DNA of 64,000 nucleotides from Spirochaetia bacterium. GTDB taxonomy: Bacteria; Spirochaetota; Spirochaetia; UBA9216. A model generated the notes under the pieces. The model had not been told where the DNA came from, ran no database searches, and was given only the letters and a program-made list of their open reading frames with translations. The stretch spans positions 1,376,001-1,440,000 of the forward strand of contig CAXXYH010000004.1 in assembly GCA_963677925.2 (NCBI GenBank), given 5' to 3'. Shown here piece after piece: positions 18,727 to 32,604 of this stretch. The stretch's first letter is position 1. Each line of letters opens with the position of its first letter. The position numbers and the translations under genes are program-made.

Positions 18727-18797
18727 TATTATCCCCGCTTGTAAGTTAATTAACTACAGTATACATCAGGATTGCATATTAAGGTTTTTTAAAATAT

Positions 18798-18860: not shown

Positions 18861-18885
18861 TTCTGAAAACTTTTAGAAGTAATAT

Positions 18886-20262
18886 TTGGAGGGTTCGATG
18901 GAACTATTGGGTCTTGTCGGTATAATTATCGGTATCGTACTTTTTCTTGTCCTGGCGTATAAAGGATGGTCTACTCTGTGGGTAGCGCCGGTCTGTGCTG
19001 TCATTGTTGCAATATTTAATCAGCTGAATCCGGTTACAGCAATAGCAAGTAATTACGTGAGTGGAATGACAGATGTAATTATTAGTCTATTCTCTCTGAT
19101 TTTTATGGGGGCGGTATTCGGTAAAGTATATGCAGAAACCGGTGCGGCCTCATCAATTGCGGTCACTCTTGTAAATAAATTTGTATTGCCCAGAAAGGGT
19201 GAAGGTCAGGTGAAGGCTGCAGTTTTTGTTATCCTTATAGTAAGTGCGATCTTTACTTTCGGCGGAGTGGATGCTTTTGTTGTTGTATTTACACTATTCC
19301 CGATAATAATGGTTGTAGCTGAAAAGACTGATATACCGAGAAAGTTCGTGCCGGCACTGCTATGCCTGGGTGCGCCTTTTATTGCTGCTCCGGGAGCGCC
19401 TCAGCATAATAATATTATGGTTATGCAGGCCTTAAAGGCTCAGGGTATTGAAATATTGCCTACCGCCGGTCTTATTCCCGGGTTTGTTGCAGTAATAATT
19501 ATTGCTGTATTGAGCTATTTTACTGTAGTACGGTTAATTATTAAATCAAAAGCGAAGGGAGATAAGTTTGAGATGGGAGAAGCCTACTGCCCTCCTGTTG
19601 AAAATAGAGAACTTCCCAATTTCTGGGTCGCATTGATACCTCTGCTTGTAGTCTTTATTTTATTTCTTGTATTTCATGAAGTTTTAATTGCTCTGGGTGC
19701 AGGAATAATACTTGCAATAATTCTGATGTTTAAATATATGGTTTCACGAGGTGACGGCTGCAGTGAAATAACTCTCGGAAAAGCAATTATAAATTCCATT
19801 AACAGCGGTGCAGGGGAATATCCTAATGCGCTTATCTCTATAGTAACACCATCAGGACTTGCTGCTGTAATTGCTTCTACCGCAGCCTTTGGAATGGTTA
19901 TTGGATTCTTCTACGGTATGCAGGTACATTATATGATCGCAGCAATTATCGTAATCAGCATAGTTGTTGCTTTAACTTCATCTCCGCCCGCAGCTATTTT
20001 TATATCGATTCCGATTATTATGGGAATTGTAGGGCAAAGCGGAATGATTCCTAATATTCCCGGAATTGCACGTGTTGTCGCCCTTGCTTCCACTACATTT
20101 GAAACACTGCCTGCTAACGGATTTGTCCTTCTGATACTTGGTCTATCAAAGATTAAGCATAAGGAAGGATATCTGCCGGTTTTTCTTATGACAGTTGCCT
20201 ATACCCTTGTCGGTACTGTTATTGCAGCTGTGATGTTCATGCTGTTTCCCGGACTGGGCTGA
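18886..20262 (+). CDS. GntP/CitM-type (ion transporter superfamily) organic-acid permease
   Basis: GAVFGKVY..TGAA.SIA, FGGVDAFVVVF, PGAPQ..N, LP.NG motifs; about 11-12 TM helices. Confidence 0.88.
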   Translation: MEGSMELLGLVGIIIGIVLFLVLAYKGWSTLWVAPVCAVIVAIFNQLNPVTAIASNYVSGMTDVIISLFSLIFMGAVFGKVYAETGAASSIAVTLVNKFVLPRKGEGQVKAAVFVILIVSAIFTFGGVDAFVVVFTLFPIIMVVAEKTDIPRKFVPALLCLGAPFIAAPGAPQHNNIMVMQALKAQGIEILPTAGLIPGFVAVIIIAVLSYFTVVRLIIKSKAKGDKFEMGEAYCPPVENRELPNFWVALIPLLVVFILFLVFHEVLIALGAGIILAIILMFKYMVSRGDGCSEITLGKAIINSINSGAGEYPNALISIVTPSGLAAVIASTAAFGMVIGFFYGMQVHYMIAAIIVISIVVALTSSPPAAIFISIPIIMGIVGQSGMIPNIPGIARVVALASTTFETLPANGFVLLILGLSKIKHKEGYLPVFLMTVAYTLVGTVIAAVMFMLFPGLG

Positions 20263-20276
20263 ATCAAAATGAGATA

Positions 20277-20320
20277 AAAGCAGAAGCGCCCGCTTTGATA
20301 ATCCAGGCGGGCTGCTTTCT
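20277..20320 (+). terminator. Probable terminator after the permease
   Basis: gcccgc(tt)...(ag)gcgggc stem with flanking aaagc/gcttt. Confidence 0.5.
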
Positions 20321-20377
20321 ATAAGATAAAAAATTACAGTTAGAATAAACATAACTGTTGGAAATTATACCAAATAA

Positions 20378-20440
20378 CAAAAAGATACAGTTTTTAGTGT
20401 AATAAGTTGCGTTGACGGCTGGAAAAAGCCGGAACATAAT
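20378..20440 (+). promoter_or_regulatory. Promoter with conserved operator (copy 2)
   Basis: CAAAAAGATACA-N11-AATAAGTTGCG; -35 TTGACG (20412), 17-nt spacer, -10 CATAAT. Confidence 0.7.
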
Positions 20441-20530
20441 CTTAAAACCTTATTTCTAATAAAAGTAAAAAACTAACAGTTAAACATGCTGAGTGTTAAA
20501 AATTAATTTTTGAATCTTGGAGGATAAAAT

Positions 20531-20875
20531 ATGAAAAAAAGACAAGTTGAAGAGTGCAGTACTTATGATGCTCCGGGACATTTTAAAATGACAGCCATGA
20601 GGCTTCACGGAAAAGATGAATCAAATGCTCAAAAGTTCTGGATGGGACTGAGTCATTTTCTTCCTGGAGGTGGAGCCGATTATGCATATGAAGATTCACC
20701 AACCGAAAAAATCTATTATGTACTTGAGGGTGAGCTGACAGTATACACAAAAGACAAAAAAGAAAAGATTGTACTTAAAAAAAATGATTCAATCTTCATC
20801 GGTCCTAATGAAGGACGTTCACTTATTAACGAAACAAATTTCCCGGCTTCAATGCTGGTTATCGTTAATTACTAG
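20531..20875 (+). CDS. Cupin-domain protein
   Basis: SHFLPGGG, EKIYYVLEGEL, DS.FIGPNE.R...N cupin motifs; GGAGG RBS. Confidence 0.88.
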   Translation: MKKRQVEECSTYDAPGHFKMTAMRLHGKDESNAQKFWMGLSHFLPGGGADYAYEDSPTEKIYYVLEGELTVYTKDKKEKIVLKKNDSIFIGPNEGRSLINETNFPASMLVIVNY

Positions 20876-20889
20876 GTTTCAGGAGTAGT

Positions 20890-21678
20890 TTGATGACAAC
20901 AGATTTTGTAACTAATTTATTCGATGTAAAAAATAAAGTCGCTGTAATTACCGGTGCTACCGGAGCTCTGGGCCGTGCAATTGCATTCGGCTACGGTCAT
21001 GCCGGTATGAAAGTTTTTGTAACCGGTCGAAATGAATCTAAAAATAAAGGTCTTTGTGATGAATTAAAAAGTGCCGGTATAGAATGCGCTTCTGAGGCTG
21101 GAGATCCTGCAAAAGAAGAAGATGTAATAAAGATTGTTAACTCAGCAGTTAAGACATTCGGAGAGATAAATGTACTTGTAACGGCAGCAGGATATAATCA
21201 TCCCCAGCCGATAGTTGAGCAGGATTTATCGGAGTGGAAAAAAATTATGGACTCCGATGTTCAGGGTACTTGGCTATTCTGTAAATATGCAGGGAAGCAG
21301 ATGATAGAGCAGGGAAAGGGCGGAAAGGTTATTCTTGTGTCCTCTGCAAGGTCGAAAATGGGAATGGCTAATTATACCGGCTATTGTACAGCAAAAGCAG
21401 GAATCGATTTGATGGCACAGTCTCTTGCCTGTGAATGGACTGCCAAATATAAAATTAATGTGAACACCATCAACCCGACAGTCTTCAGATCAGAACTTAC
21501 AGAATGGATGTTTGATCCTGAAAGTGAGGTCTATAAAAACTTTCTAAAAAGACTTCCTGTCGGAAGACTGGGCGAACCCGAAGATTTTGTCGGCCCGTGC
21601 ATTTTTCTTGCATCAAAATCAAGTGATTTTATGACCGGGGCTAATATAGCTACTGACGGCGGATACTGGGCTAACTAG
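20890..21678 (+). CDS. SDR oxidoreductase, probable phloroglucinol reductase
   Basis: TGATGALG, SS, YCTAK catalytic motif, INPTVFRS.LT, DGGYWA; pathway context. Confidence 0.8.
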   Translation: MMTTDFVTNLFDVKNKVAVITGATGALGRAIAFGYGHAGMKVFVTGRNESKNKGLCDELKSAGIECASEAGDPAKEEDVIKIVNSAVKTFGEINVLVTAAGYNHPQPIVEQDLSEWKKIMDSDVQGTWLFCKYAGKQMIEQGKGGKVILVSSARSKMGMANYTGYCTAKAGIDLMAQSLACEWTAKYKINVNTINPTVFRSELTEWMFDPESEVYKNFLKRLPVGRLGEPEDFVGPCIFLASKSSDFMTGANIATDGGYWAN

Positions 21679-21680
21679 GT

Positions 21681-22634
21681 ATGATGATTTCAGATATAAA
21701 GAAAATTACAATCCTCGGGGCTGGCATGATGGGTCCCGGGCTCGCACAGATTTTTGCATCAAAGGGTTATTCGGTTACAGTCTGGGCCCGTCGTGCTGAA
21801 GTCCTTCCGGGAGTTGTTGATCAAATAGAAGGCAATCTATCTCTTATGGCGGACAATGGAATAGGCAGTCATGAGAGCATAGCGTCTATTATTTCAAAAG
21901 TGACAACAACTGATGATTTTGAGAAAGCAGTGGTTGATGCAGATTTCGTTATTGAAGCCATTGGAGAGAAGCTGGAACTTAAACAGGAATTTTTTCAAAA
22001 GCTTGATAAGCTCTGCAAACCTGAAACTGTTCTTGCCACCAATACTTCTGTAATCAGTATTACGGAAATTGCTTCGACATCAGAAAAAAGGGATCGGATT
22101 ATAGGAACTCACTTCTGGAATCCCCCTTACCTTATTCCGCTGGTAGAAGTTGTTCCTGCTTCTGACACTTCAGATGAGACTGTGCAGATTACAATGGAAC
22201 TTCTTTCAGAATGCGGAAGAAAACCAATTCATGTTAAAAAAGATGTTCCGGGTTTTGTAGCAAATAGACTGCAGCATGCGCTATGGCGCGAGGCGATATC
22301 AATCGTTGAGAGGGGAATAGCTGATCCTAAAACCGTAGATGATGCAATTCGGTACAGTTTTGGTTTCAGACTTCCAATCCTGGCTCCAATTGAAAACTCC
22401 GACATGGTTGGAACAGAATTAACCTGGAATATTCACAGCTACATATTAAAGCATATTGAGAGCTCTACAGAACCGTCTCCACTGCTGAAGGATATGATAG
22501 ATAAAGGTACAATCGGTTTTAAATCAGGGAAAGGGTTTTACGATTGGGATGACGAGAAAATTGCTGCTTCTAAAAGAGCTCTCCAGGAGTATCTGATTAA
22601 GCAGCAGGGAACAAATGAAAAGGATTATTTTTAA
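21681..22634 (+). CDS. 3-hydroxyacyl-CoA dehydrogenase family, probable 3-hydroxy-5-oxohexanoate dehydrogenase
   Basis: GAGMMG, ATNTS, GTHFWNPPYLIPLVE, PGFVANRLQHAL.REA, G.KSGKGFY; context. Confidence 0.82.
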   Translation: MMISDIKKITILGAGMMGPGLAQIFASKGYSVTVWARRAEVLPGVVDQIEGNLSLMADNGIGSHESIASIISKVTTTDDFEKAVVDADFVIEAIGEKLELKQEFFQKLDKLCKPETVLATNTSVISITEIASTSEKRDRIIGTHFWNPPYLIPLVEVVPASDTSDETVQITMELLSECGRKPIHVKKDVPGFVANRLQHALWREAISIVERGIADPKTVDDAIRYSFGFRLPILAPIENSDMVGTELTWNIHSYILKHIESSTEPSPLLKDMIDKGTIGFKSGKGFYDWDDEKIAASKRALQEYLIKQQGTNEKDYF

Positions 22635-22703
22635 GTAAAGGCGGAGGGTAAGTTTTACCCTCATTTTAATGATTAATTTTTTTAAATTATTTGGAGTAAT
22701 ATT

Positions 22704-23642
22704 ATGGGAAAAAAAATATTTGTAGATTTAACACATCCGTTCAGTGCAGAAATACCAAGGTGGCCTTATTTTGATAAGCCTGTAATTGATAATAATCATA
22801 CAATGGCAAAGGGTGGAGTCCTTACTCAGAAGATAACATGTACCATGCATACCGGAACTCATGCAGATGCACCGCGGCATGTAATGGAAAGAGAGTTCGA
22901 CGGCAGAAGAGCCCGCTACACACATGAAATGCCTGTTGATGCTTATACAGGCGATGCTGTATGTCTTCCGATCGAAATTGAGAGATGGGGCCTTATAGGA
23001 CCTAAGCACCTTGAAGCGGCATGTGAGAAAGTCGGAATTAAGCCTGCAGAACTGGAAGGAATGGTTGTATGCCTGAATACCGGGATGCATCGAAAGTTTG
23101 ATGATTCAAAAGAATATTATCATTACGCATGCGGAACCGGAGTTGAAGCCGGCAAGTGGTTTGTTAAGCATAAGGTTAAATGCGTAGCAAATGATACTCA
23201 GGCCCTTGATCATCCTCTGCATACTGCAATGGGTAATAATGGAATGACAAAGATGAATCTTATAGGAGCATCCGGAAAACCGATTACTGAAGAATACATC
23301 GAACAGTTCGGTGAAGAAGCTTATGCCGAGTTTGACAAATTCACATATATAAAAGTTCACGGTCAGGAAGCTTATGATGCAAAGTACGGCGACCTTGAAG
23401 CTATTGGATGCTGGGGAACATGGGAGCCATGTCACAAGCAGATGCTGGGACACGGAATTGTCGGTGTTGAAAATCTAGGCGGAGATCTCGATAAAGTTAG
23501 CGGAAAAAGATTCCGTTTCTACTGCTTTCCTCTTCGATGGTATCTTGGTGACGGCTCAATGGTTAGATGTGTCGCAGAAATCGACGAGGCTGATCTAAAT
23601 GATGTTCCTGACAGGGTATATACCTACGGCGGAAATATTTAA
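22704..23642 (+). CDS. Cyclase/kynurenine-formamidase family, probable dihydrophloroglucinol cyclohydrolase
   Basis: DLTHP, HTGTHADAP metal motif, H..MLG.GI.GVENL, GDGS.VR.VA. Confidence 0.85.
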   Translation: MGKKIFVDLTHPFSAEIPRWPYFDKPVIDNNHTMAKGGVLTQKITCTMHTGTHADAPRHVMEREFDGRRARYTHEMPVDAYTGDAVCLPIEIERWGLIGPKHLEAACEKVGIKPAELEGMVVCLNTGMHRKFDDSKEYYHYACGTGVEAGKWFVKHKVKCVANDTQALDHPLHTAMGNNGMTKMNLIGASGKPITEEYIEQFGEEAYAEFDKFTYIKVHGQEAYDAKYGDLEAIGCWGTWEPCHKQMLGHGIVGVENLGGDLDKVSGKRFRFYCFPLRWYLGDGSMVRCVAEIDEADLNDVPDRVYTYGGNI

Positions 23643-23653
23643 CGGGGATAATT

Positions 23654-24496
23654 ATGGGTGATTTGGATAATAAAGTAATACTTACAGTTGCGCACACTGG
23701 TGCGTGGCCTACAAAAAATGAAAACCCTAATGTGCCTCTTCAGCCGCAGGAAATTGCAGATGATGTCTATGCATGCTGGAAAGCCGGTGCATCGGTTTCA
23801 CATATCCATGTGAGGGATGATAATGATAAATCATCAATGAGTTTTGAAAAGTTTAAGGAAACCGTTGAGCTCATAAGAGCCACTGATTGTGACATTGTTA
23901 TCAACCTCACAACTTCCGGACAGCTTGGTCTGACTGATGAAGAGAGGATGGTTCATATAAAAGAACTGAAGCCGGAGATGGCTTCGTATGACTGCGGTTC
24001 AATGAACTGGCTGAATACCTCAGTTTTTGAAAACAGTCCAAGGTTTCTTGAAAAGCTCGGTGCTACCATGCAGGAATATAACATTAAGCCTGAAATTGAA
24101 ATATTTGATGTCGGAATGCTGTCAAATGCTCTTTATTATCTGAAGAAGGGTATATTAAAAGCTCCGCTGCATTTTCAGCTTTGTATGGGTGCGGCCGGAG
24201 GAATGCCGGCAACAGTTGAGAATCTGGTTTATCTTCACGGTTTGCTCCCTGAAGGTTGTACCTGGGGTGGCTTTGGAATCGGCAAGGGGCATATGCCTCT
24301 GCTGTATACAACAATCGCTCTCGGCGGTCATGTCCGGGTAGGATTTGAAGATAATGTTCTATACCAGAAGGGAGTTCCGGCTGAATCGAATGTTCAGTTT
24401 GTCGAAAGAGCAAAAAGACTTATAACCGAATTTGGAAAAGAAGTTGCAACTCCTGATGAGGCACGGCAGATTCTCGGGCTGAATAAAGCTGAATGA
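23654..24496 (+). CDS. Beta-keto acid cleavage enzyme (Kce/DUF849), probable triacetate acetoacetate-lyase
   Basis: P..PQEIA, AGAS..HIHVRD (Zn HxH), GSMN, KPEIEIFD, GGHVRVGFEDN, ATPDEAR.ILG. Confidence 0.88.
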   Translation: MGDLDNKVILTVAHTGAWPTKNENPNVPLQPQEIADDVYACWKAGASVSHIHVRDDNDKSSMSFEKFKETVELIRATDCDIVINLTTSGQLGLTDEERMVHIKELKPEMASYDCGSMNWLNTSVFENSPRFLEKLGATMQEYNIKPEIEIFDVGMLSNALYYLKKGILKAPLHFQLCMGAAGGMPATVENLVYLHGLLPEGCTWGGFGIGKGHMPLLYTTIALGGHVRVGFEDNVLYQKGVPAESNVQFVERAKRLITEFGKEVATPDEARQILGLNKAE

Positions 24497-24600
24497 CATT
24501 GAATAAAACAAAAGTAATGGAATTTTAATACCGAATCTGAGCAGCTCTCCTGGAGAGTCAATGTCTTTGGGGAGCTGCTGTTCTTATCAAAGGAGTAATT

Positions 24601-25422
24601 ATGGCAATGGTTAATCAGGGTTTGGTCCCTGTTACTGAACAGGATAAAGAAAAAACATATTTTAAATATTTTAACGAGGAAATGGCTGAGGCTCCTAAGG
24701 AAAAATACCAGGAAGTATTAATGGGCCCTGTTGATCCCCGGAGGGCATTAAAATTCAAGGATAGAAATGACTTGTTTAATCCGGGATATCTGGATGTTGA
24801 AGTCGGATACTGTGTTATGGAAGACGGTACCGGTTTTGTTGCAAATCATACAATGATGCTCGGTGTAACGGTAGAGATGTTTGACTGGTGGTTCGCCTGG
24901 CATGGACTTGATAATCTTCGATACTCCATCTGGAATCATGAAGATCATTATCAGGCAGAATCGATGCAGAAAGTCAGGGCGCATGATCCTGAATTAAGTA
25001 TTAAAGAAAAATACTGGGATACTACACATCACGTAATAGAAGATGTGGGTATGGGGCCTGAACACCTGAGTATCAATTTTAAATATCCGGGGGACCTTGG
25101 ATTTGATATGACTAAATACGGTACAGCAGCCTGCGGTACAATAGTGTGCGCAAAGGGTAACGGTATTGGTCATCCTCCATTCGCAAGTCCCGGTACTATC
25201 ATGTGTCATTTTATCAGAGAAATAGATGGTGGCGTTGAGCTTAGAACCAGATTCTGGATGGGGTGGACATTCGAAAACGGCAGAGATGTAAAAGCTCTTC
25301 CGGACGGATTCAGAATGCCGCCGATGGGTCCTATGGCTCTTCTTCTTCATAATATAAAAGAGTTTACCAATCTGGCATCACTGCTTCCCAGAGTTTACAC
25401 TGAGGAAAAAAATAACTTTTAG
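24601..25422 (+). CDS. phy: Phloretin hydrolase / DAPG hydrolase (PhlG) family C-C hydrolase
   Basis: EMFDWWFAWH, LRY.IW..EDH, H.VIEDVG.GPE, RFW.G, HNIKEFTNLA.LLP.VY.EEK..F; 273 aa, closely resembling Eubacterium ramulus Phy as recalled. Confidence 0.85.
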   Translation: MAMVNQGLVPVTEQDKEKTYFKYFNEEMAEAPKEKYQEVLMGPVDPRRALKFKDRNDLFNPGYLDVEVGYCVMEDGTGFVANHTMMLGVTVEMFDWWFAWHGLDNLRYSIWNHEDHYQAESMQKVRAHDPELSIKEKYWDTTHHVIEDVGMGPEHLSINFKYPGDLGFDMTKYGTAACGTIVCAKGNGIGHPPFASPGTIMCHFIREIDGGVELRTRFWMGWTFENGRDVKALPDGFRMPPMGPMALLLHNIKEFTNLASLLPRVYTEEKNNF

Positions 25423-25443
25423 AAAGACAAGGAGAACTGCTGC

Positions 25444-25683
25444 ATGGCAAACCATAAAATAAATTTTAATCCTTCAACCTGCATAGGCTGCAAGGTCTGC
25501 TACAAATCATGCTTTGTTGACGTCATACGCTGGGATGAGAATAAAAAATTGCCAGTATTCAAGTATGTTGAAGACTGCGTTCATTGCACCTATTGTGAAG
25601 CTTTATGCCCTAAAGACTGTATTGAAGTAGTTATAGATTTTGAGGGCGAAAGAGTCTATCAGAATTTTGATGCATACCGATAG
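25444..25683 (+). CDS. 2x[4Fe-4S] ferredoxin (AprB-like small subunit)
   Basis: CIGCKVCYKSC and CVHCTYCEALCP. Confidence 0.9.
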   Translation: MANHKINFNPSTCIGCKVCYKSCFVDVIRWDENKKLPVFKYVEDCVHCTYCEALCPKDCIEVVIDFEGERVYQNFDAYR

Positions 25684-25715
25684 GATAGCCAATAGGAAAT
25701 TGGAGAGTAAATAAT

Positions 25716-27410
25716 ATGAAACCTGAAAATAAGAATATGACAGTTGATGTGCTTGTTGTAGGAGGCGGAATAGCCGGTCTGTCTGCAGCGGTGCGTACTA
25801 AAGAGCTTGATGATAAATTAAGCGTACTGATAATGGAAAAAAATACAACAGGATGGAGCGGGAAGGCTAATCGCGGCGGAGGAGTTCTTCAGTATTTTGA
25901 TTTTAACCGCTGTACTCCGGATCAGTTTGTGGAATATCATGCGCACAATGTCGGAGCATATCTTGGTGATCAGAAGCTGCTTCACAAATATGTAAGCATG
26001 AATAATGAGATGATCGAAAAACTTTCGGACTGGGGTGTGAATGTCCCCTATAACGAGGATGGAAGTTTGAAGGTTATGCCTACAGGCCCGCTGACAGGAA
26101 TGATAGGTGTTGATCTTGATATAACTGTCAATGTCAGAAAGACTGCTAAAAAGCTGGGAGTTGAGCTGCTGGATAAAGTTGTTTTATCAGATATTCTTCT
26201 CAACAAAGGAAAGGCCGTCGGAGCTGTCGGATACAGTCTGCTTGACGGAATCTTTTATACTATAAATGCAAAGACCGTAATTCTTGCAACAGGCAGTCAG
26301 AACTATAAAATTATGCCGATGTGGAACAGCCGGGGTGACGGAATAGCAGCAGCTTACAGGGCCGGAGCTGAAATGCGTAATGTTGAGTTTGGAAACTTTG
26401 CACAGCAGTATAAGTCAAAGAGTCACCATGACGCAGTATTTTCAGAAAATGTCATGTACAACGCTCTTGGAGAAAATATAACAAAAAACTTCAGACGCTT
26501 TCCGGAAGCAGATGTTTCTTCTACCGCGGTGCGGGAATGGTATAACCAGATGTCTGCAGGTAAAGGCCCGGTTTCGATTCATATAGATGAATATGAAGTG
26601 ACCGCCCATGGTGATGCACTGTTTACAACTTCCCATGTATGGGATAGACCATACGGCATAAAAGTATGGAAGAAGATATACGGAAAAGCTGCTGCACAAG
26701 ACGGCGATAACAAGGAAGTTGTGATGTGCCTTGTAGGTGAACAGTCTCCGGTTAAAGTCGGACATGATATGCAGACTACTATTCCAGGACTCTATGCCAT
26801 AGGTGATATAAGCTACTGCGGATCTGCTTCTCCGGGGGCTGTACCTGCACCTCCAGGAAGAAACCGTGGTTCAGGAATTCTGAATGCAGTTTTTAACGGA
26901 CTGCTGGTTGCAGAATCAGTTTCTGATTATAACTCCCGTAATGAACTCTGCGCTGTCAATGAGAGCCAGGTTCAGGAATGTATAGACAGGGCAGTAGCTC
27001 CTTTGTTGAGGAATGAAGGTATTGAAGCTGAAGAACTTATGACTGCTGTCAGGGAGGCCATAGGTCCTGTCGAATACAGCGTCTACATGAGTCAGCACAG
27101 GCTTGATATCGGTCTTCGTAAAATTGAAAAGGCAAAGGCTATGATTCCAAAGCTTAAAGCCGAGGATCCTCACGGACTTTGCAACTGTCATGAGGCAGAG
27201 GCAATGGTGCTTTCAGCAGAGATGCAGTTCAGGGCTGCTTCAATGAGAAAAGAGTCACGCGGATGGTTCCTGCGTGAAGATTATCCTCAGATGGATAATA
27301 AGGAATGGCTGAAATATATAATAGTAAAAAATGAAAATGGAGAAATGGTTTTCTCTACGGAAGACGTTCCTATTCAGGATTATCCTGTTAAACCGCCGAT
27401 GTTCGGCTAA
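25716..27410 (+). CDS. AprA/SdhA/NadB-family FAD flavoprotein
   Basis: GGGIAG, VILATG, GDG.A.AYRAGA, PGLYAIGD, R.ESRG.F.REDYP..DN.EWLK. Confidence 0.88.
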   Translation: MKPENKNMTVDVLVVGGGIAGLSAAVRTKELDDKLSVLIMEKNTTGWSGKANRGGGVLQYFDFNRCTPDQFVEYHAHNVGAYLGDQKLLHKYVSMNNEMIEKLSDWGVNVPYNEDGSLKVMPTGPLTGMIGVDLDITVNVRKTAKKLGVELLDKVVLSDILLNKGKAVGAVGYSLLDGIFYTINAKTVILATGSQNYKIMPMWNSRGDGIAAAYRAGAEMRNVEFGNFAQQYKSKSHHDAVFSENVMYNALGENITKNFRRFPEADVSSTAVREWYNQMSAGKGPVSIHIDEYEVTAHGDALFTTSHVWDRPYGIKVWKKIYGKAAAQDGDNKEVVMCLVGEQSPVKVGHDMQTTIPGLYAIGDISYCGSASPGAVPAPPGRNRGSGILNAVFNGLLVAESVSDYNSRNELCAVNESQVQECIDRAVAPLLRNEGIEAEELMTAVREAIGPVEYSVYMSQHRLDIGLRKIEKAKAMIPKLKAEDPHGLCNCHEAEAMVLSAEMQFRAASMRKESRGWFLREDYPQMDNKEWLKYIIVKNENGEMVFSTEDVPIQDYPVKPPMFG

Positions 27411-27591
27411 TAATTAGAGATAAATTCCCCTAAATTTATCTGACTGGTTTGATTTTTTGGGAAAACCGCCAGCTGAATTATTTTATTTAAAAAAGTTTAA
27501 TTAAAAAAATATTTTCTACATCACCCGTTCACATTTCGTTTACAAATTCCAGTCATCCTCTCTCCTGTAAATAACGAGAGAGAGGGTATTT

Positions 27592-28632
27592 ATGAAATTA
27601 AAGAAGATAAAGCCGGCAAGGCTTATCAGATGGGCTGTTCTTGCTGCAAGTACAGTATTCTTCCTGTTTATTTCAGGAGTAGTTTCAGAGCATGCTATTT
27701 GTCCAATCGGCGGTTTTGAAATGTTTTTTACCGGTGTTTTCAATACGGGTTTCACTATTGCAGGCTTGTTTTCAGGCATGGTGATACTGTTTCTAATAAT
27801 GTCGGTTTTCTCCATTATATTCAGACGGGCATATTGCGGTTACGTCTGTCCAATGGGAGCGCTGCAGGAGCTATTTGAAAAGATCGGCAGGCTGGTTCTT
27901 CCTGAGAAGTTAAGGAAGAAACTGAGAATTCCCGAAAAAGCGGATAAGGTCTTACGATGGTTTAAATATCCGGTGCTGGCGGCATTCGTAGTCTTTGCTG
28001 GTTTGTTTGGCGGACACTGGATGATAAAAGCTGATCCGTTTATTGCAATGATGGGAATATTCAAGGGGCAGGGATTTTCGGCTGCCTTTCTTAGAAATCC
28101 GGGTTCTTATATCTTCTTTTTTGCAATTCTGATATTTGCATTCTTTATGGGACGGGGCTTCTGTAAATATATCTGTCCCGCAGGTGCATGGTATGCTATA
28201 TTATCAAAGTTAAGCCCTAACAGGATTGTCCGTAATCAGGATAAATGTTCAGGCTGTACGCTCTGTTCAAGGGCATGTCCTATGAATATTGATGTCGCCA
28301 ATCTTGAAAAAGTCACTACGGTGGAATGCTTAGGCTGCCAGGAATGTGTGAATGCCTGTCCTGTTGACGGCGCGCTTTCGTCAAAGATGGGGAAGGCTGA
28401 TATTCCAAAAGTACTTGCCCCGATAGCTGCCGCGGCAGTGTTCAGCGGGGGACTGGTTCTGGCATCATCGATTTCAAGCCAGGGCGGAGGACATCCTCAT
28501 GGTTCCGGGGGCAGCGGAGACTACCATGGGGAAACGCGGGATGTCAGCGAAGCGGATGTTTCTGCATCCACAGCCGGTACCGGGTATGCCGGATGTTCCA
28601 GCTGTATCGGCTGCGGTATCTGTGCGGGCTGA
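27592..28632 (+). CDS. Membrane 4Fe-4S polyferredoxin (NapH/FixG-like) with C-terminal Cys cluster
   Basis: CPIGG, YCGYVCPMG, FCKYICPAG, two ferredoxin motifs, terminal CSSCIGCGIC. Confidence 0.88.
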   Translation: MKLKKIKPARLIRWAVLAASTVFFLFISGVVSEHAICPIGGFEMFFTGVFNTGFTIAGLFSGMVILFLIMSVFSIIFRRAYCGYVCPMGALQELFEKIGRLVLPEKLRKKLRIPEKADKVLRWFKYPVLAAFVVFAGLFGGHWMIKADPFIAMMGIFKGQGFSAAFLRNPGSYIFFFAILIFAFFMGRGFCKYICPAGAWYAILSKLSPNRIVRNQDKCSGCTLCSRACPMNIDVANLEKVTTVECLGCQECVNACPVDGALSSKMGKADIPKVLAPIAAAAVFSGGLVLASSISSQGGGHPHGSGGSGDYHGETRDVSEADVSASTAGTGYAGCSSCIGCGICAG

Positions 28633-28654
28633 AAAATATTAAGGGGATTCTGAT

Positions 28655-29341
28655 ATGGAAAAGATTCTTGTAGTTGAGGATGAAAAAAAACTGAATGATC
28701 TGATAAAAGATTATCTGCTGTCGCTGGGGTATGAGGCGGTGCAGTGCTTTAACGGAATCGATGCCCTCAAACTGCATGAATCCGAGAAACCTGATTTAAT
28801 GGTACTTGATCTTATGCTTCCGGGCCTGGACGGTCTGGAAGTGGCCAGACGAATCAGGACTTCCGCCGGAACTCCAATTATAATGCTTACTTCCAGAGAC
28901 TCGGAGGCAGATAAGCTTCTGGGGCTTGAGATTGGTGCAGATGATTATATGACAAAACCTTTCAGTGTGAGAGAATTATGTGCAAGAATAAGGGCGGTAC
29001 TCAGAAGAGCTGTAGCCGTATCAGATGCTGCTGAAGCATCATCATTGATTAAACTGAATGAAATTGAGATAGACACCTCAAAGCGTAGAGTTACAAAAAG
29101 CGGAAAGGAAGTCCCCCTGACCTCAGCTCAGTTTGAGCTGCTACACCTCCTGTTTCAGTCTCCGGGAAGAGTTTTCACTCGGGGCGAACTGATTCAGGCT
29201 TTGAGCGGATATAAATATGAAGGATATGAGAGAACCATTGATGTACATATTAAAAATCTGCGGAAACTTATTGAGGATAATCCTTCTGTCCCGGATATCA
29301 TCCTGACTGTCTGGGGTGTAGGATACAAGGTAAAAGAATGA
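28655..29341 (+). CDS. OmpR-family response regulator
   Basis: VEDE, LDLMLP, GADDY.TKPFS, RTIDVHIKNLRK, TVWGVGY. Confidence 0.95.
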   Translation: MEKILVVEDEKKLNDLIKDYLLSLGYEAVQCFNGIDALKLHESEKPDLMVLDLMLPGLDGLEVARRIRTSAGTPIIMLTSRDSEADKLLGLEIGADDYMTKPFSVRELCARIRAVLRRAVAVSDAAEASSLIKLNEIEIDTSKRRVTKSGKEVPLTSAQFELLHLLFQSPGRVFTRGELIQALSGYKYEGYERTIDVHIKNLRKLIEDNPSVPDIILTVWGVGYKVKE

Positions 29342-30756
29342 AAATTAGAAATGAACTGTTTGCAGGGCTTGCTGTAATTCTGATACTCAGCAGCCTTGCG
29401 ACTTATCTTATAGTAAGAATCTCCGTAAATAAAAATTTTGATGATCTAGTTGAAAAGAATGATATAGCGATAGCAAAAAACTATGCGGAATCAATTTCAG
29501 CCTACTGCAGTGAAAACGGTACACTTGATGGTATTGAGCAATATCTTGAAAGGATAAAAAGTGATCCTGATACATATAACGGAACCGCAGACAGAACCTT
29601 TGACCGAAGGCATCCCAAAGATTCTGAGATTCCGATAGTTATAACCGACAAACAGGGCGCTGTAGTTTTCTCAGGACTTGAGCAGCGGGACGGCCCCCCC
29701 GAAGACAAGCTTCCGCAGAAAATGAAAACAGATCAGGGCGAAGAAATTCTGATAGATGACGATACAATCGGATATGTATTTTTCAAATCGATGATCACAC
29801 AGGATTATAATCCTCAGGAGCTGACCTTTATTAAGGCTGTAACTGCATCCACTGGTATATCAGTGCTGCTGGGTATCATTCTTGCTGTTGTTTCGGGAAC
29901 GCTTCTGGCTGCCAGATTTGCTAAGCCCATTACTGAACTTGATTCTGCAGTTAAGAAAATAACATCAGGAGATCTTTCAGCCAGGGTTGATGTCGCAGGC
30001 AGAAACGAAATAGGCAGTCTGGCTGAGAATTATAATCACATGGCGGACAGGCTCCAGAAAACCGAGAACTCAAGGCAGACGCTGCTCTCTGATATTGCTC
30101 ATGAACTGCGGACTCCCGTGAGTGTTATACAGGCAAATCTTGAGATGATAATTGACGGAGTATATACAGCAGATGAAGAGCGGATGAAAAGCCTTTATGA
30201 AGAAACCAGAATTCTGACAGGACTCATCTCGGACCTCCGGTCATTAAGTGATCTGGAGTCAGGTGCTGCCGGAATGAATATGGACCGGATATCTTTATCA
30301 GGACTTCTTGATGGAACATGTGGTAAGCTTCGTCCCCTGTTTGAAGACAAGGGGATTCATCTTAATCTGGACAGCTCGTCCGGAGACGTTTTTGTTACGG
30401 CAGAAGAGGAGAAGCTGAGACAGGTTCTCAGAAACATAATTGGCAATGCTCACAAGTATGCCCCGTCTGATACCACAGTATCTGTTTCCCTTTCAGAGAG
30501 CAGGACTGAGCGCGCCGGTCAGTCATATGTCAGGGTTACCGTAACAGACGAAGGGGAGGGCGTTCCCGAAGGAGATACTGAAAAAATCTTCGAGCGTTTT
30601 TACAGAGTTGATTTTTCCAGAAACAGAGAGTCCGGCGGAAGGGGTCTGGGCCTTGCTATCAGTAAAAGAATTATCGAGGCATTCGGAGGCTGTGTCGGTG
30701 CCTTCAACAACAGTCCTAAGGGTCTTTCGGTCTGGTTTGAACTGCCTGTTCAATAG
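29338..30756 (+). CDS. HAMP-domain sensor histidine kinase (BaeS-like)
   Basis: Two TM helices, HAMP, DIAHELRTP, NAHKY, FERFYRVD.SR, GLGLAI; ATGA overlap with the regulator. Confidence 0.95.
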   Translation: MKIRNELFAGLAVILILSSLATYLIVRISVNKNFDDLVEKNDIAIAKNYAESISAYCSENGTLDGIEQYLERIKSDPDTYNGTADRTFDRRHPKDSEIPIVITDKQGAVVFSGLEQRDGPPEDKLPQKMKTDQGEEILIDDDTIGYVFFKSMITQDYNPQELTFIKAVTASTGISVLLGIILAVVSGTLLAARFAKPITELDSAVKKITSGDLSARVDVAGRNEIGSLAENYNHMADRLQKTENSRQTLLSDIAHELRTPVSVIQANLEMIIDGVYTADEERMKSLYEETRILTGLISDLRSLSDLESGAAGMNMDRISLSGLLDGTCGKLRPLFEDKGIHLNLDSSSGDVFVTAEEEKLRQVLRNIIGNAHKYAPSDTTVSVSLSESRTERAGQSYVRVTVTDEGEGVPEGDTEKIFERFYRVDFSRNRESGGRGLGLAISKRIIEAFGGCVGAFNNSPKGLSVWFELPVQ

Positions 30757-30846
30757 ATTCAAGCTATCAATTCAATGATTTTTTAGAATTGGACACTATA
30801 TTTCTCCACCATTATAATTTCTTCAATATTTATATTGGAGTAATAA

Positions 30847-32535
30847 ATGAGCACATTTGAAGTACTCAGCCCCTGGGCGGAAGTAGACTGGTCTGAAATT
30901 AGAGGGCTGAGTCCAAGGCTTGAAGATCTTGAAGGAAAAACAATCGGAATGTTCGGTGATTTTATGATTAATTCCGAATATATGCTCAAAGAGGTTGAGA
31001 AAGAATTAAGCCGCAGATATAAAAATATAAAATTTTCCCATATAAGATACCTGGTAGAACTTCCTGAACTCAGTCAGAATAAAGAGTTTCTTCCTGAGTT
31101 TCATACATGGCTTGAAGGGGTGGACGCAGTAATAAGTTTTTACGGCAGCGTTCCGTCAAGCGCCCTGTTCCAGGGTTATAATACAGCATATATTGAAAAA
31201 CTGGGAAAACCCTGTGTAATGCTTACGACAGAGCGGACCTTTGGAAATGGTGTCCGCGGAGTTACTACAAAGAAAGTTCCTGATATGAGGATATACAAAT
31301 ATGATATTCAGGTAGACCGTGTCCGCGGTCATGTTACTCAGGAGCTGGTTTCAGAGGCATTGAAAGACGACTTGTCCATGATTACAGACTGGATGGTTGA
31401 AGGCCTTATCAAGCCGCTCAATAAACAGGAAGCAGATCCTGCAGTACCTGATCAGAGTCTTGCAACCGGAACTTATACGGGAACTTCCGAAGAAATTAAT
31501 AGAATATTTTATAAAAACGGATGGAGCAACGGTTCTCCGATACTGATGCCCACAAGAGAAGCCGTTGATGAAATGCTTAGGGGAACTGATCTTCCAGCCG
31601 ACTATGTAGTTGCAGAAATCCCACCGATGATGGGCAAGGCAACTGTTGAAAAGATTGTAGTAAATGCAGTTATGGCCGGCTGTCTTCCTACATATCTACC
31701 GGTTCTAATATCTGCTGTTAAGGGTTCGCTTGATGAAAAGATATTTTTTGAAGGCTGGACATGCAGCCAGTCAACCTGGGGGCCCATGCTTACTCTCAGC
31801 GGTCCAATTGTCCGTGATATTAACCTTAACGTGGACGGTAATTTCCTGTCTCCCTATTACAAAGCCAATACTGCAATAGCCCGTGCTTACGGAAATATCC
31901 TCATGAACATCGGAGGGGTTAGACCAGGCATAGAGGATCTTTCGGAAATGGGGCATGAGTTCAGGATCGGATACTGCATGGGTGACAACAGCGAGATGAA
32001 TCCATGGCAGCCTCTTCATATGGATTTCGGATTTGCTGAAGCCGACTCTGCTGTTACAATGTCATGGCCGCAGGAGCACAGGGTTTTTCAGAAGGGCAGT
32101 CCCTCTGCATTTCTTAAGGAGATTTGCAAGATTAATCCTCTTGGATGGGATCCGGGCCTCATCCTGATTTTTTCTCCAATAGCTGCAAAGATGTTCGCCG
32201 ATGCGGGATGGACTAAAAAAAAGGTTCTGGATTATATAGTTGAATACGCAAGGGTTCCCGGAGAGGATGTTGATATTCAGTGGCTTGTTGGAAACATGCA
32301 TGAGCCTGAGAATGTTCCGCTGCCCGAGGATATGAAGGCTTCTACAAGAATATTCTGGAGCAGCAGACATATGTTTGCTGTAGTCGGCGGCGGAATGGCA
32401 GGTCCAATGATGGCAGTTCTTGCAGGCGGCGGAGATCATGGCGGCCCCTCCTGTACAAAGATTGATCTTCCTAAAAACTGGGATGCACTGGTTAAGGAAT
32501 ACAGTGATTATTCCAGAGGTCATATTGATTATTAA
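30847..32535 (+). CDS. UGSC-family-like fusion protein (N-terminal UGSC-like domain + TVEKxxxNAVMAGC domain)
   Basis: PRLEDLEGKTIG; GWSNG.PI..PT...VDEML; ATVEKIVVNAVMAGCLP; AN..I.RA...IL.NIGG. Confidence 0.72.
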   Translation: MSTFEVLSPWAEVDWSEIRGLSPRLEDLEGKTIGMFGDFMINSEYMLKEVEKELSRRYKNIKFSHIRYLVELPELSQNKEFLPEFHTWLEGVDAVISFYGSVPSSALFQGYNTAYIEKLGKPCVMLTTERTFGNGVRGVTTKKVPDMRIYKYDIQVDRVRGHVTQELVSEALKDDLSMITDWMVEGLIKPLNKQEADPAVPDQSLATGTYTGTSEEINRIFYKNGWSNGSPILMPTREAVDEMLRGTDLPADYVVAEIPPMMGKATVEKIVVNAVMAGCLPTYLPVLISAVKGSLDEKIFFEGWTCSQSTWGPMLTLSGPIVRDINLNVDGNFLSPYYKANTAIARAYGNILMNIGGVRPGIEDLSEMGHEFRIGYCMGDNSEMNPWQPLHMDFGFAEADSAVTMSWPQEHRVFQKGSPSAFLKEICKINPLGWDPGLILIFSPIAAKMFADAGWTKKKVLDYIVEYARVPGEDVDIQWLVGNMHEPENVPLPEDMKASTRIFWSSRHMFAVVGGGMAGPMMAVLAGGGDHGGPSCTKIDLPKNWDALVKEYSDYSRGHIDY

Positions 32536-32556
32536 ATAGCTGATATTTATTGTTGG

Positions 32557-32599
32557 AAAGCCTCAGACAAAACACAGCCGATTTATCTGAGGCTTTTTT
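32557..32599 (+). terminator. Intrinsic terminator
   Basis: aaagcctcaga...tctgaggc followed by T6. Confidence 0.75.
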
Positions 32600-32604
32600 A
32601 TAAC

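Follow-up and report, generated by a model that had tools for sequence, protein, structure and literature searches.

Among the polyphenols of diet and soil, flavonoids are the main group. Their degradation by anaerobes determines which phenolic acids the host receives and the amount of phenolic carbon set free in anoxic soils. Few enzymes make up the accepted pathway (FLR, CHI, Fcr and Phy), and several of its steps are listed in reviews as lacking one (PMC11572103, PMC13515148, PMC12203004). Flavanones and flavanonols are converted to dihydrochalcones by the Fcr / enoate reductase of Eubacterium ramulus (reviews PMC13515148, PMC11572103). Characterised Phy enzymes have been described as free homodimers (PMC11572103), and since recombinant E. 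ramulus Phy was reported to be active alone (review PMC11572103), hydrolysis as such requires no reductase. For the phloroglucinol released, the PGR, DPGC, TfD and TAL families are described for Clostridium scatologenes (CsDPGC, CsTfD) in PMC10470551; DAPG_hydrolase is recorded there in some clusters, and the searched portions of its text and supplements mention no flavoprotein or ferredoxin partner. The PAPS reductase of Methanothermococcus thermolithotrophicus (8a8o) is an alpha2beta2 enzyme with a two-cluster ferredoxin domain as beta subunit and Trp206 as an FAD-binding residue (PMC10322725).

The locus presented here lies within a window of 64,000 nucleotides (the whole stretch of DNA that was analysed) from a Spirochaetia bacterium. 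Its features are as follows.

18886..20262, + strand: GntP-like permease, opening the same-strand run (Pfam GntP_permease 2.5e-10)
20531..20875, + strand: small cupin (Pfam Cupin_2 1.7e-10)
20890..21678, + strand: SDR, phloroglucinol reductase (PGR)-type gene (Pfam adh_short_C2 1.2e-45)
21681..22634, + strand: 3-hydroxyacyl-CoA-dehydrogenase family, candidate TfD-type (S)-3-hydroxy-5-oxohexanoate dehydrogenase (Pfam 3HCDH_N 7.9e-59)
22704..23642, + strand: 'Cyclase' family, candidate dihydrophloroglucinol cyclohydrolase (DPGC) (Pfam Cyclase 5.4e-32)
23654..24496, + strand: BKACE family, candidate triacetate acetoacetate-lyase (TAL) (Pfam BKACE 1.2e-108)
24601..25422, + strand: Phy, 273 aa, phloretin hydrolase / PhlG-family metal-dependent C-C hydrolase (Pfam PF18089 5.1e-79)
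25444..25683, + strand: 2x[4Fe-4S] ferredoxin, 79 aa (Pfam Fer4 families)
25716..27410, + strand: flavoprotein, 564 aa, non-covalent FAD, AprA / PAPS-reductase-like fold (FAD_binding_2 + Succ_DH_flav_C)
27592..28632, + strand: NapH-like membrane polyferredoxin (Pfam Fer4_5 1.5e-19; NCBIfam NapH/MauN 4.2e-24, below cut-off)

The phy, ferredoxin and flavoprotein genes (the trio) are separated by 21 nt (25423-25443) and 32 nt (25684-25715), so that the spacing given in the original prediction is borne out by the ORF coordinates, and a purine-rich ribosome-binding stretch precedes the ATG after each gap. The trio sits directly 3' of a complete phloroglucinol-degradation gene set. All four families described for C. 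scatologenes are found together in one run (20890-24496), here directly 5' of phy, with activities that are putative and assigned from sequence. At least three of the four pathway genes were found in 15 of the 79 related loci described below, and the PGR-type SDR gene adjoins the trio in other loci too. The small cupin travels with this SDR gene; a cupin cluster was found in 10 of the 79, mostly immediately 5' of the SDR. The GntP-like permease, a possible transporter of substrate or product, was found among the related loci only in the twin L032. While the original prediction had stated that no membrane anchor is nearby, the NapH-like membrane Fe-S protein is encoded 181 nt 3' of the flavoprotein. 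It is, however, only 22 nt before a response regulator and co-occurs with the flavoprotein in just one of the 79 loci, the same-genus twin L032, and it probably belongs to the two-component system that comes next and not to the enzyme.

Phy scores 265.4 bits against a cut-off of 22.7 for PF18089 (DAPG_hydrolase) and is a member of this family. Its best solved relatives are phloretin hydrolase (5xe5_A, 4.9e-37) and PhlG (3hwp_A, 2.8e-30), and residues H116, E147, H250 and E254 align to four metal-ligand positions of PhlG, which we take to be His129, Glu160, His270 and Glu274. The window protein is full-length, carries the four ligand positions and is alike in these respects to the phloretin hydrolases of E. 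ramulus and M. abscessus (5xe5) and to PhlG (3hwp). In 5 of 10 sampled Phy-positive genomes, Phy was present without the flavoprotein.

The flavoprotein matched FAD_binding_2 (4.3e-20) and Succ_DH_flav_C (2.5e-14), a domain order shared with FrdA, SdhA and L-aspartate oxidase of the same superfamily. Its closest PDB match was 8a8o_A (7.4e-29 by phmmer, 7.9e-45 by profile), and when the AF2 model (pLDDT 78.8, pTM 0.85) was searched with Foldseek, 8a8o again ranked first, followed by AprA (1jnr/2fja), at approximately 22% identity. PAPS reductase and AprAB are therefore the closest solved relatives of the flavoprotein in both fold and sequence, and in both, as in the trio, FAD is not attached via a histidine of the SdhA type. 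The original prediction had noted that the SdhA covalent-FAD histidine motif is not evident, and this was confirmed: residues 49-56 read GKANRGGG, and Gly49, at the position of E. coli FrdA His44 (covalent 8-alpha-FAD), is invariant in 23 family members. The position of the dicarboxylate-binding FrdA His232 (HPT motif) is occupied by Ala229 (EFGNFAQ), whereas the ESRG arginine of FrdA, presumably Arg390, is kept as R515. Unlike FrdA and SdhA, the trio has neither an SdhB-type subunit, its partner being the 79-aa 2x[4Fe-4S] protein, nor a membrane anchor operon.

With respect to APS reductase, the profile alignment covers only residues 16-216 and 428-636 of AprA, leaving the capping domain unaligned. 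For A. fulgidus AprA we assume Asn74, Arg265 and His398 to be the substrate-binding or catalytic residues; Asn74 aligns to L58, or to Q59 with a one-residue shift. The histidine of the 8a8o GGHGQ stretch, which we take to be catalytic, aligns to Gly341, and the invariant W203 aligns to the FAD-binding Trp206 of 8a8o. None of the 48 NCBIfam matches of the flavoprotein was above its cut-off, including TIGR02061 aprA (77.5 bits against 641.75), NF005331 (159.8 against 557) and the best match NF006131 (189.5 against 587); the PRK08275 score was likewise 189.5 against 587. The lack of sat near the trio, also part of the original prediction, holds genome-wide, with no PF01747 match for ATP sulfurylase in this genome (99.63% complete), while the same search gave matches in 5 of 14 known genomes. 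In summary, the flavoprotein fails the tests for a fumarate reductase, and those for an APS reductase were either failed or inconclusive.

The ferredoxin matches several 4Fe-4S dicluster families in Pfam, with cysteine motifs at C13, C16, C19, C23 and at C45, C48, C51, C55; each of these eight cluster cysteines is retained in 79-80 of the 80 sequences compared. Its gene precedes that of the flavoprotein as aprB precedes aprA, and a two-[4Fe-4S] partner encoded beside the alpha subunit is common to the trio, 8a8o and AprAB. Unlike the partner in AprAB and PAPS reductase, however, it is a bare 79-aa ferredoxin core, generic by sequence, and AprB was absent from the best 60 of its 97 PDB matches. 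In a distant relative (P0214) the flavoprotein is fused to a dicluster domain. AprAB has nothing that corresponds to the third, Phy-fold component, and the sulfate activation gene is absent from the trio genome, in contrast to the AprAB and PAPS reductase systems.

Conserved linkage to phy had been set beforehand as a point on which the original prediction could be refuted, and it was upheld. Loci were retrieved with peptide patterns of the flavoprotein alone; 596 stretches matched, 97 were confirmed and 80 were kept, giving 79 distinct loci, many of which come from related MAGs and hence are not independent. A ferredoxin homologue lies immediately 5' of the flavoprotein in all 79, and in 74 a Phy gene or domain lies beside it or close by: directly upstream in 46, fused in 19, directly downstream in 8 and, in the one remaining locus, only at a distance of 2.6 kb. 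Flavoprotein relatives at 49% identity or more account for 73 of the 79 loci and cover four phyla as given in record titles, with three further loci at approximately 40-42% identity from Actinomycetota. The carriers include many gut, rumen and sediment bacteria. Neighbours in other loci include MFS transporters, LysR regulators, pyrogallol hydroxytransferase and URO-D-like genes, together with a second flavin oxidoreductase (NMO family) 3' of the flavoprotein in 20 loci and an OYE-type reductase adjoining the trio in 4.

The 19 fusion ORFs (approximately 812-915 aa, one of them ending at a contig edge) carry the flavoprotein N-terminally and a Phy domain with intact ligands C-terminally. A fused 825-aa cluster representative (P0122) was the second-best match among 1.84 billion representatives, and the fused form also makes up a separate 50%-identity cluster. 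Thirteen of the 46 upstream Phy-like genes are without two to three of the four ligand positions. These form one clade (support 100) and are under purifying selection, with dN/dS of 0.037-0.158 in 8 of 10 pairs and saturated dS in the other two; 12 of these 13 loci also encode, 1.3-2.4 kb downstream, another Phy whose four ligands are all intact. The Phy fold of the trio thus differs from characterised Phy in being fused to, or predicted to dock on, the flavoprotein and in having lost its ligands in 13 loci.

Prediction of the flavoprotein-Phy complex gave a score of 0.81 compared with 0.56 for the best control, with at least 97% of contacts in agreement between runs and a partner pLDDT of at least 91; of 157 solved complexes 116 attained this mark, as did 2 of 215 mismatched pairs. 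As the control of Phy with an unrelated 617-aa protein scored 0.56, the Phy surface is generally sticky. The predicted interface includes the invariant R462, E521, D522 and P524 of the flavoprotein, just after the ESRG active-site motif, and residues 136-144 of Phy, beside ligand E147. It is only moderately conserved across Phy groups, and loop 187-191 is missing from the fused forms. This modelling supports physical binding between the flavoprotein and Phy.

We consider it highly probable that the three proteins cooperate on substrates of the Phy type, and they appear to be one enzyme unit that is previously undescribed; no description of a hydrolase-ferredoxin-flavoprotein unit was found in our literature search. 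The original prediction thus stands insofar as it tied the pair to Phy and not to APS or fumarate reduction, on the strength of synteny (74 of 79 loci), the 19 fusions, the ligand-less partners, the complex prediction and the family tests, while we infer where the electrons come from, which way they flow and, from context, the substrate. For the chemistry, the original prediction had offered a chalcone C=C reduction, a C-ring-cleaving reduction or an action on the released phenylpropionate as candidates. We propose the flavoprotein as the catalytic (alpha) subunit and the ferredoxin as the electron-entry (beta) subunit. Phy itself, a point absent from the original prediction, looks like a subunit of the enzyme, and we propose that it is the hydrolytic and substrate-binding one.

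The reaction that we consider the most likely, and tentatively assign to the trio, is the reduction of a chalcone or flavanone to the dihydrochalcone, in the anaerobic catabolism of flavonoid-type acylphloroglucinols. The AprA-like alpha subunit would bind FAD non-covalently, and the 79-aa two-cluster ferredoxin would pass single electrons from a low-potential cellular pool via the conserved W203 to the flavin, with the Phy-fold subunit docked on the capping and C-terminal domains of the flavoprotein. The flavin would reduce the enone of a 2',4',6'-trihydroxychalcone to give the dihydrochalcone; its substrate may be the chalcone as such, or a flavanone or isoflavanone bound in its open form in the Phy-fold pocket. 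The Phy site would then cleave the aryl-carbonyl C-C bond to yield phloroglucinol and a phenylpropionic acid, and the phloroglucinol would be consumed by the PGR, DPGC, TfD and TAL gene products encoded just upstream. Where the docked Phy-like subunit is ligand-less, it would serve only in substrate binding or complex cohesion, and the second, free Phy would hydrolyse.

The trio may therefore work like Fcr without being an Fcr. The reaction proposed for it is that of Fcr, at the same point of the pathway, immediately ahead of Phy; both systems combine flavin and iron-sulfur centres and both are probably oxygen-sensitive. Fcr, however, consists of an OYE domain and an FAD/[4Fe-4S] domain, whereas the fold of the trio is unrelated and no PF00724 (Oxidored_FMN) match was found by Pfam in any of its three proteins. 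Electrons would enter the trio through the ferredoxin subunit and reach Fcr from NADH, and a need for Phy as partner is not reported for Fcr. The original prediction that OYE-type reductases are absent is correct for the window, but not for the genome, which has 18 PF00724 matches, all outside the window. Given that OYE-type enoate reductases are known catalysts of the chalcone step and that an NMO gene is present in 20 loci, this step may have its enzyme already, and the trio may serve another purpose. It is possible, although doubtful, that the trio represents a new class of flavoenzyme: an AprAB-like FAD/iron-sulfur reductase that requires a C-C hydrolase fold as a subunit, whether fused, separate or without catalytic activity, and forms with it a composite or channelled active site. 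Such an enzyme would take an unassigned flavonoid step in strictly anaerobic bacteria of gut, rumen, digesters and sediments, such as ferredoxin-driven C-ring cleavage of flavanones or isoflavanones, or a step of the auronol/flavanonol branch.

Other reactions were weighed against chalcone or flavanone reduction. The same three-subunit unit could carry out a different reductive step, on an oxygenated C3 bridge: it would reduce or reductively dehydroxylate an acylphloroglucinol that bears an alpha-hydroxy or alpha-keto group (taxifolin dihydrochalcone, the auronol alphitonin as its open diketone, or flavanonols), after which Phy would cleave the product. Such a role, which we regard as rather unlikely, would fill steps for which reviews and a metatranscriptome study give no known enzyme, namely alphitonin cleavage and taxifolin C-3 dehydroxylation (PMC11572103; PMC12203004); a dedicated iron-sulfur electron entry would suit a reduction harder than that of an enone, and the NMO and OYE-type enzymes beside the trio may take care of the chalcone. 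However, conversion of alphitonin to 3,4-dihydroxyphenylacetate and phloroglucinol takes no net reduction by our own balance, no structural or sequence feature indicates oxygenated-bridge substrates, and the trio also occurs in organisms like this one, where the locus holds no other flavonoid gene. We consider it improbable that Phy cleaves a chalcone, an unsaturated acylphloroglucinol, and that the flavoprotein reduces the released hydroxycinnamate to phenylpropionate and so disposes of electrons, as fumarate and cinnamate reductases do. While this option was offered in the original prediction, and the superfamily typically reduces a C=C bond beside a carboxylate, for which the carboxylate-binding arginine is retained as R515, the catalytic histidine of FrdA is replaced by Ala229 and a docked, non-hydrolysing Phy fold (13 loci) has no evident use to a cinnamate reductase. 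The hydroxycinnamate reductases known to us are, moreover, of the soluble FAD_binding_2 type without Succ_DH_flav_C, which also counts against this role.

Quite improbable in our view is an oxidative role, in which the flavoprotein would dehydrogenate a reduced precursor, such as a diarylpropan-2-ol or a flavan-type compound, to the aryl ketone for Phy, while the ferredoxin subunit would pass the electrons on to an acceptor. Relatives such as succinate dehydrogenase and aspartate oxidase do run oxidatively, catechin to taxifolin is listed with unknown enzymes (PMC12203004), and the NapH-like protein just 3' offers a possible quinone link; that gene, though, occurs with the flavoprotein in only 1 of the 79 loci, among which neither a hydratase nor another oxidising gene is conserved, and the majority of carriers are Clostridia that live by fermentation, apparently with no high-potential acceptor. 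It is very improbable that the flavoprotein reduces the phloroglucinol ring, free or acylated, as a ferredoxin-linked counterpart of the NADPH-dependent PGR or of the ferredoxin-dependent resorcinol reductase: although the Phy-fold pocket binds the phloroglucinol moiety, and a ferredoxin-dependent resorcinol reductase with analogous chemistry is mentioned in PMC10470551, the operon here already encodes an SDR-type PGR, 15 loci have one next to the trio, and NADPH readily reduces phloroglucinol (PMC10470551). Finally, that an ordinary APS/PAPS or fumarate reductase stands beside phy by chance is already near refuted. The best solved relatives are indeed PAPS reductase and AprA, then SdhA and FrdA, and the annotation at source is 'succinate dehydrogenase/fumarate reductase flavoprotein subunit', but the linkage to Phy with its fusions, the NCBIfam scores far under their cut-offs, the lack of ATP sulfurylase in a 99.6% complete genome, the loss of both FrdA histidines to Gly and Ala and an AprA capping domain that is not alignable all speak against it.

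The unit is widespread, yet its annotation everywhere goes no further than 'FAD-binding protein' or 'succinate dehydrogenase flavoprotein'. Should it prove to be a flavonoid reductase, surveys that judge the capacity for flavonoid degradation from genes would have overlooked a major player, and its ligand-less Phy partners would be a natural tool for trapping the reduced intermediate. It would also add a carbon-substrate function to the AprA branch of the fumarate reductase superfamily.

The gene arrangement of the original prediction, which had proposed a ferredoxin-flavoprotein pair coupled to phy as a candidate flavonoid reductase, was present in the window as claimed with respect to open reading frames, spacers and protein families. 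Spacers of 21 nt and 32 nt separate the three ORFs, and a purine-rich ribosome-binding stretch lies ahead of each. They are listed below with one small upstream gene.

20531-20875, + strand: cupin, 114 aa, just ahead of the phloroglucinol reductase-type SDR
24601-25422, + strand: Phy, 273 aa, DAPG_hydrolase/Phy family (Pfam, 5.1e-79)
25444-25683, + strand: two-[4Fe-4S] ferredoxin, 79 aa
25716-27410, + strand: flavoprotein, 564 aa, FAD_binding_2 and Succ_DH_flav_C domains

Upstream on the same strand lie, in order, genes for a GntP-like permease, the cupin, an SDR, and members of the 3-hydroxyacyl-CoA-dehydrogenase, "cyclase" and BKACE families. In Clostridium scatologenes phloroglucinol is converted to acetoacetate and acetyl-CoA via PGR, TfD, DPGC and TAL, as described in the accessible part of PMC10470551, and the last four of these window genes belong to exactly those families. 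Because of this match the locus was read as one in which Phy frees phloroglucinol from an acylphloroglucinol, with fermentation to follow. The cupin gene precedes the SDR gene in about 10 related loci as well, and no mention of a cupin was found in the same part of PMC10470551. A promoter and terminator scan of 18500-33000 gave 38 and 13 hits versus shuffle expectations of 30.8 and 10.2, and no operon boundaries were obtained from it. A look for RNA runs covering 20500-28700 found none.

The claim that no membrane anchor lies nearby did not hold, as a NapH-like membrane iron-sulfur protein is encoded 181 nt downstream of the flavoprotein (27592-28632), followed 22 nt on by a response regulator and then by a histidine kinase. 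These three genes are taken to be a separate unit from the trio. A role for the NapH-like protein as membrane anchor was rejected, since among the 79 related loci described below it occurs only in the same-genus twin and its gene lies 181 nt from the flavoprotein versus 22 nt from the response regulator. The regulator is OmpR-type and the kinase carries a HAMP domain, which suggests a redox-sensing module. A second NapH/Fer4_5-type membrane polyferredoxin is encoded at 9225-10400 (-). With respect to OYE-type reductases, their reported absence was true of the window, but 18 matches were found elsewhere in the 5.04-Mb genome; the absence of sat extends to the whole genome (99.6% complete), from which ATP sulfurylase is missing.

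The nearest solved protein to the flavoprotein was 8a8o_A (7.4e-29 with the single sequence, 7.9e-45 with the family profile), the alpha subunit of a PAPS reductase from M. thermolithotrophicus that resembles APS reductase, followed by AprA and then by FrdA, SdhA and NadB. An AlphaFold model (pLDDT 78.8, pTM 0.85) searched with Foldseek ranked these relatives in the same order. According to the accessible part of PMC10322725, the M. thermolithotrophicus enzyme is an alpha2beta2 assembly in which the beta subunit amounts to little more than a two-cluster ferredoxin domain, and Trp206 of the enzyme touches FAD. Trp203 of the flavoprotein aligns to this residue and is invariant in the alignment of homologues. 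The flavoprotein stayed below the family cut-offs, with 77.5 against 641.75 for NCBIfam aprA and 189.5 against 587 for the top-scoring "fumarate reductase" model. The capping domain of AprA, where the APS-binding residues lie, gave no alignment to the flavoprotein whatsoever. As had been noted from the sequence, an SdhA-type covalent-FAD histidine is not evident: the FrdA position is occupied by Gly49, the first residue of the GKANRGGG motif (residues 49-56). In contrast to FrdA, Ala229 stands at the His232 position, while the arginine of the ESRG motif is kept. The reading of the flavoprotein as an ordinary reductase of APS or fumarate is almost ruled out. Conservation in the family is highest in the stretch GSAxPGAVPAPPGRNRGSGILN (residues 369-385, window about 26820-26870), which is almost entirely invariant and sits where FrdA has the GANRLG FAD motif; it is also where the AlphaFold model has its lowest confidence (pLDDT below 50), and it may become ordered only in the presence of FAD or a partner.

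To survey the wider family, 23 flavoprotein homologues were aligned and two peptide patterns were run against one genome per species (GTDB). The patterns were drawn from the flavoprotein only, so the scan was blind to Phy. The 596 matched stretches yielded 97 confirmed and 80 kept hits in 79 distinct loci, all ORFs of which were compared against the 16 proteins of the window. A ferredoxin gene was found immediately 5' of the flavoprotein in every one of the 79 loci, and its eight cluster cysteines are conserved in 79-80 of 80 sequences. In 74 of the 79 the flavoprotein was accompanied by Phy, as a gene or as a domain, although such locus counts overstate independence, as many loci come from related MAGs. 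The original prediction would have been refuted by a lack of linkage to phy; linkage proved to be conserved. Phy was adjacent upstream in 46 loci, fused in 19, adjacent downstream in eight and present only at 2.6 kb in one, and the three gene orders formed distinct clades in a Phy tree. The five Phy-less loci were L031, L037, L075 (where the contig start cuts the locus) and the Thermoleophilia loci L076 and L077 (42% identity). Only phloroglucinol genes were found near the flavoprotein of L031, and the neighbours in the other four (regulators, transporters and unrelated genes) were not informative. At least three of the four phloroglucinol genes were present within the fetched flanks of 15 of the 79 loci. 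By their labels, most carriers were Bacillota of rumen, gut, digester and termite-gut origin; the others included a Geopsychrobacteraceae MAG, actinobacterial and Thermoleophilia records and the near-twin of the window (Spirochaetia). Cultured carriers include Alkalibacter mobilis M17 DMB, Anoxynatronum buryatiense Su22 and Fusibacter sp. 3D3.

The reverse survey, starting from Phy, used even samples of 401 genomes from each of two classes. In the window's own class 6 of 401 genomes gave a Phy match, and in the class of a Roseburia carrier 7 of 401. Among the ten Phy-positive genomes that had not been picked by the feature, the flavoprotein was present in five (G039, G184, G585, G594, G666) and missing from five (G763, with three Phy copies, G672, G482, G160 and G226), so the unit is one of at least two ways to use Phy. 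With respect to origin, the window was set against loci L001-L006 and L032. The twin locus, labelled Spirochaetia, is near-identical (98%), and the closest other relatives of flavoprotein and Phy (72-79%) are from Bacillota (Alkalibacter, Anoxynatronum, Vallitaleaceae, Acidaminobacter) and one Geopsychrobacteraceae MAG. On the basis of these Bacillota-like relatives and the rarity of Phy in the class, the whole operon (18886-27410) was probably acquired horizontally.

The 19 fused loci encode a single ORF of about 812-915 aa which comprises the whole flavoprotein followed by the whole Phy domain, one being cut by a contig end. All four metal-ligand positions are kept in each of the 18 complete fused Phy domains. 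The second-best match among 1.84 billion cluster representatives was itself a fused form (P0122, 825 aa); the search gave 668 relatives at E <= 1e-30. A more distant relative (P0126, 749 aa) carries a shortened Phy-like domain (hhalign probability 93.7), and another (P0214) has a dicluster ferredoxin domain at its C-terminus, so that both partners occur joined to the flavoprotein somewhere in the family. In further distant relatives (P0143, P0158, P0160, P0163, P0174, P0182) the C-terminus is extended by 110-190 aa that match no Pfam family, and these extensions may be other partner domains for other substrates; that of P0160 showed no likeness to Phy (hhalign probability 0.1).

When the window Phy was aligned to PhlG (3hwp_A), His116, Glu147, His250 and Glu254 occupied the four positions which, from PhlG numbering, we take to be the metal ligands. 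All four were present in 73 of the 86 Phy sequences from the loci. The 13 ligand-less sequences (with patterns such as N-R-Q-E or N-K-Q-E) were all encoded directly upstream of the ferredoxin in Eubacterium/Lachnospiraceae-type loci such as L028 and L029, and formed a single clade with support of 100 in a quick IQ-TREE tree. Their genes are full length, with dN/dS of 0.037-0.158 in eight of the ten pairs computed and saturated dS in the other two. In twelve of the 13 loci a further Phy that retains all four ligands is encoded 1.3-2.4 kb downstream; in the tree these second copies group in a separate clade, whose sister comprises the fused and downstream forms. The ligand-less protein has lost metal binding but is still conserved beside the flavoprotein, and a separate gene provides a working Phy; the simplest reading is that the ligand-less Phy-fold serves the flavoenzyme as a structural or substrate-binding subunit.

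All 13 ligand-less loci also carry a gene for an NMO-family (PF03060) FMN oxidoreductase, which in 11 follows the flavoprotein directly, at 15-130 nt. It accompanies the flavoprotein, mostly directly after it, in 20 loci overall (L019, L022, L024, L028-L030, L033, L036, L062, L063, L065, L069, L071 and seven further), and may serve as a second ene-reductase or as a point of entry for NAD(P)H. Its identification as the flavone reductase FLR was rejected, as FLR is WrbA/flavodoxin-like according to the accessible parts of PMC7862272 and PMC11868195.

Flavoprotein and Phy were co-folded using alignments of 21 rows each, drawn from the same loci. The complex scored 0.81 versus 0.56 for the best control, for which the tool returned the verdict "supports binding"; the score mark is attained by 116 of 157 solved complexes and by 2 of 215 mismatched pairs. 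Contact agreement between runs was at least 97% and partner pLDDT at least 91. Replacing the flavoprotein while keeping Phy gave a control score of 0.56, indicating that Phy has a sticky face. We know of no comparable complex, so a memorised pass of the prediction seems unlikely. On the flavoprotein side, the predicted interface is formed by loop 277-283 of the capping domain, by helix 459-472, which contains the invariant Arg462, and by Glu521, Asp522 and Pro524, which immediately follow the active-site ESRG motif in the chain; on the Phy side it is formed by residues 131-144 (beside ligand Glu147), 157-165, 185-191 and 225-227. Identity to the window Phy at interface versus other positions was 0.41 versus 0.42 in ligand-less partners, 0.24 versus 0.41 in free second copies and 0.36 versus 0.50 in fused forms, a conservation test of the predicted complex that is only suggestive. 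Docking of Phy on the flavoprotein is supported by the model.

The trio looks like a conserved three-part unit in which the hydrolase fold belongs to the reductase, rather than a hydrolase with a neighbouring redox pair, and it is very probable that its proteins cooperate on acylphloroglucinol-type polyphenols. In the chemistry we infer, electrons would follow an AprAB-like route from an external donor through the two clusters and Trp203 to FAD, where they would serve a reduction of a Phy-type substrate. The candidate step is the conversion of a chalcone, or of a ring-opened flavanone or isoflavanone, to the dihydrochalcone, which precedes Phy in the accepted pathway; this specific reaction is put forward tentatively. 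In E. ramulus the same step is carried out by Fcr (accessible parts of PMC11572103 and PMC13515148), an OYE-type enzyme unrelated to the flavoprotein.

A serious rival is a different reductive step, at the alpha-oxygenated bridge of flavanonol- or auronol-derived intermediates, in view of the ene-type reductases that adjoin the unit (NMO in 20 loci, OYE type in four) and of the OYE-type reductases that abound in the window's genome. For these bridge steps no enzyme is listed in the accessible parts of PMC11572103 and PMC12203004. Weaker than either are the possibilities that the flavoprotein acts on the released cinnamate, that it reduces the ring, or that the unit runs oxidatively.

Several other genes of the window and of related loci were recorded. 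An aldehyde:ferredoxin oxidoreductase (AFOR_N and AFOR_C, 2.4e-119; 33662-35512, -) lies with a LysR regulator (32605-33531, -) a few kb downstream of the unit; it is ferredoxin-linked, was seen in none of the other loci, and could act on aromatic acids or aldehydes. The 562-aa protein encoded at 30847-32535 gave only a weak match to the UGSC family (1.4e-05) and none in NCBIfam; it is conserved in the twin, L032. The FGGY carbohydrate kinase at 54572-56070 (-) is split into overlapping ORFs (N-domain 55198-56070, C-domain 54572-55243), likely by a frameshift or sequencing error. A URO-D-like (methyltransferase-type) gene is present at 14126-15244 (-); such genes lie near the unit in six loci (L028, L030, L034, L042, L065, L069) and pyrogallol hydroxytransferase large subunits in four, both indicative of a broader catabolism of methoxylated aromatics and tannins around the unit.

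In the openly accessible full-text literature no description was found of a flavoprotein or ferredoxin partner of Phy, of the fusion, or of ligand-less Phy homologues; this covers the available parts of PMC10470551, PMC8398226, PMC11170127, PMC13689313, PMC7862272, PMC11572103, PMC11868195, PMC13515148, PMC12203004 and PMC10322725. Four supplementary files of PMC10470551 do not contain the Pfam names of the pair. The 120 closest proteins carry generic annotations ("FAD-binding protein", [quoted passage not shown]). According to the accessible part of PMC7862272, ten STRING partners of F. plautii phy, which may include homologues, were expressed and each assayed for apigenin reduction only.

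We rate the unit as an AprAB-type flavoenzyme with a new partner and, as we infer, a carbon substrate. We see a fair chance that it forms a new class of enzymes acting at an open step in the anaerobic breakdown of flavonoids.
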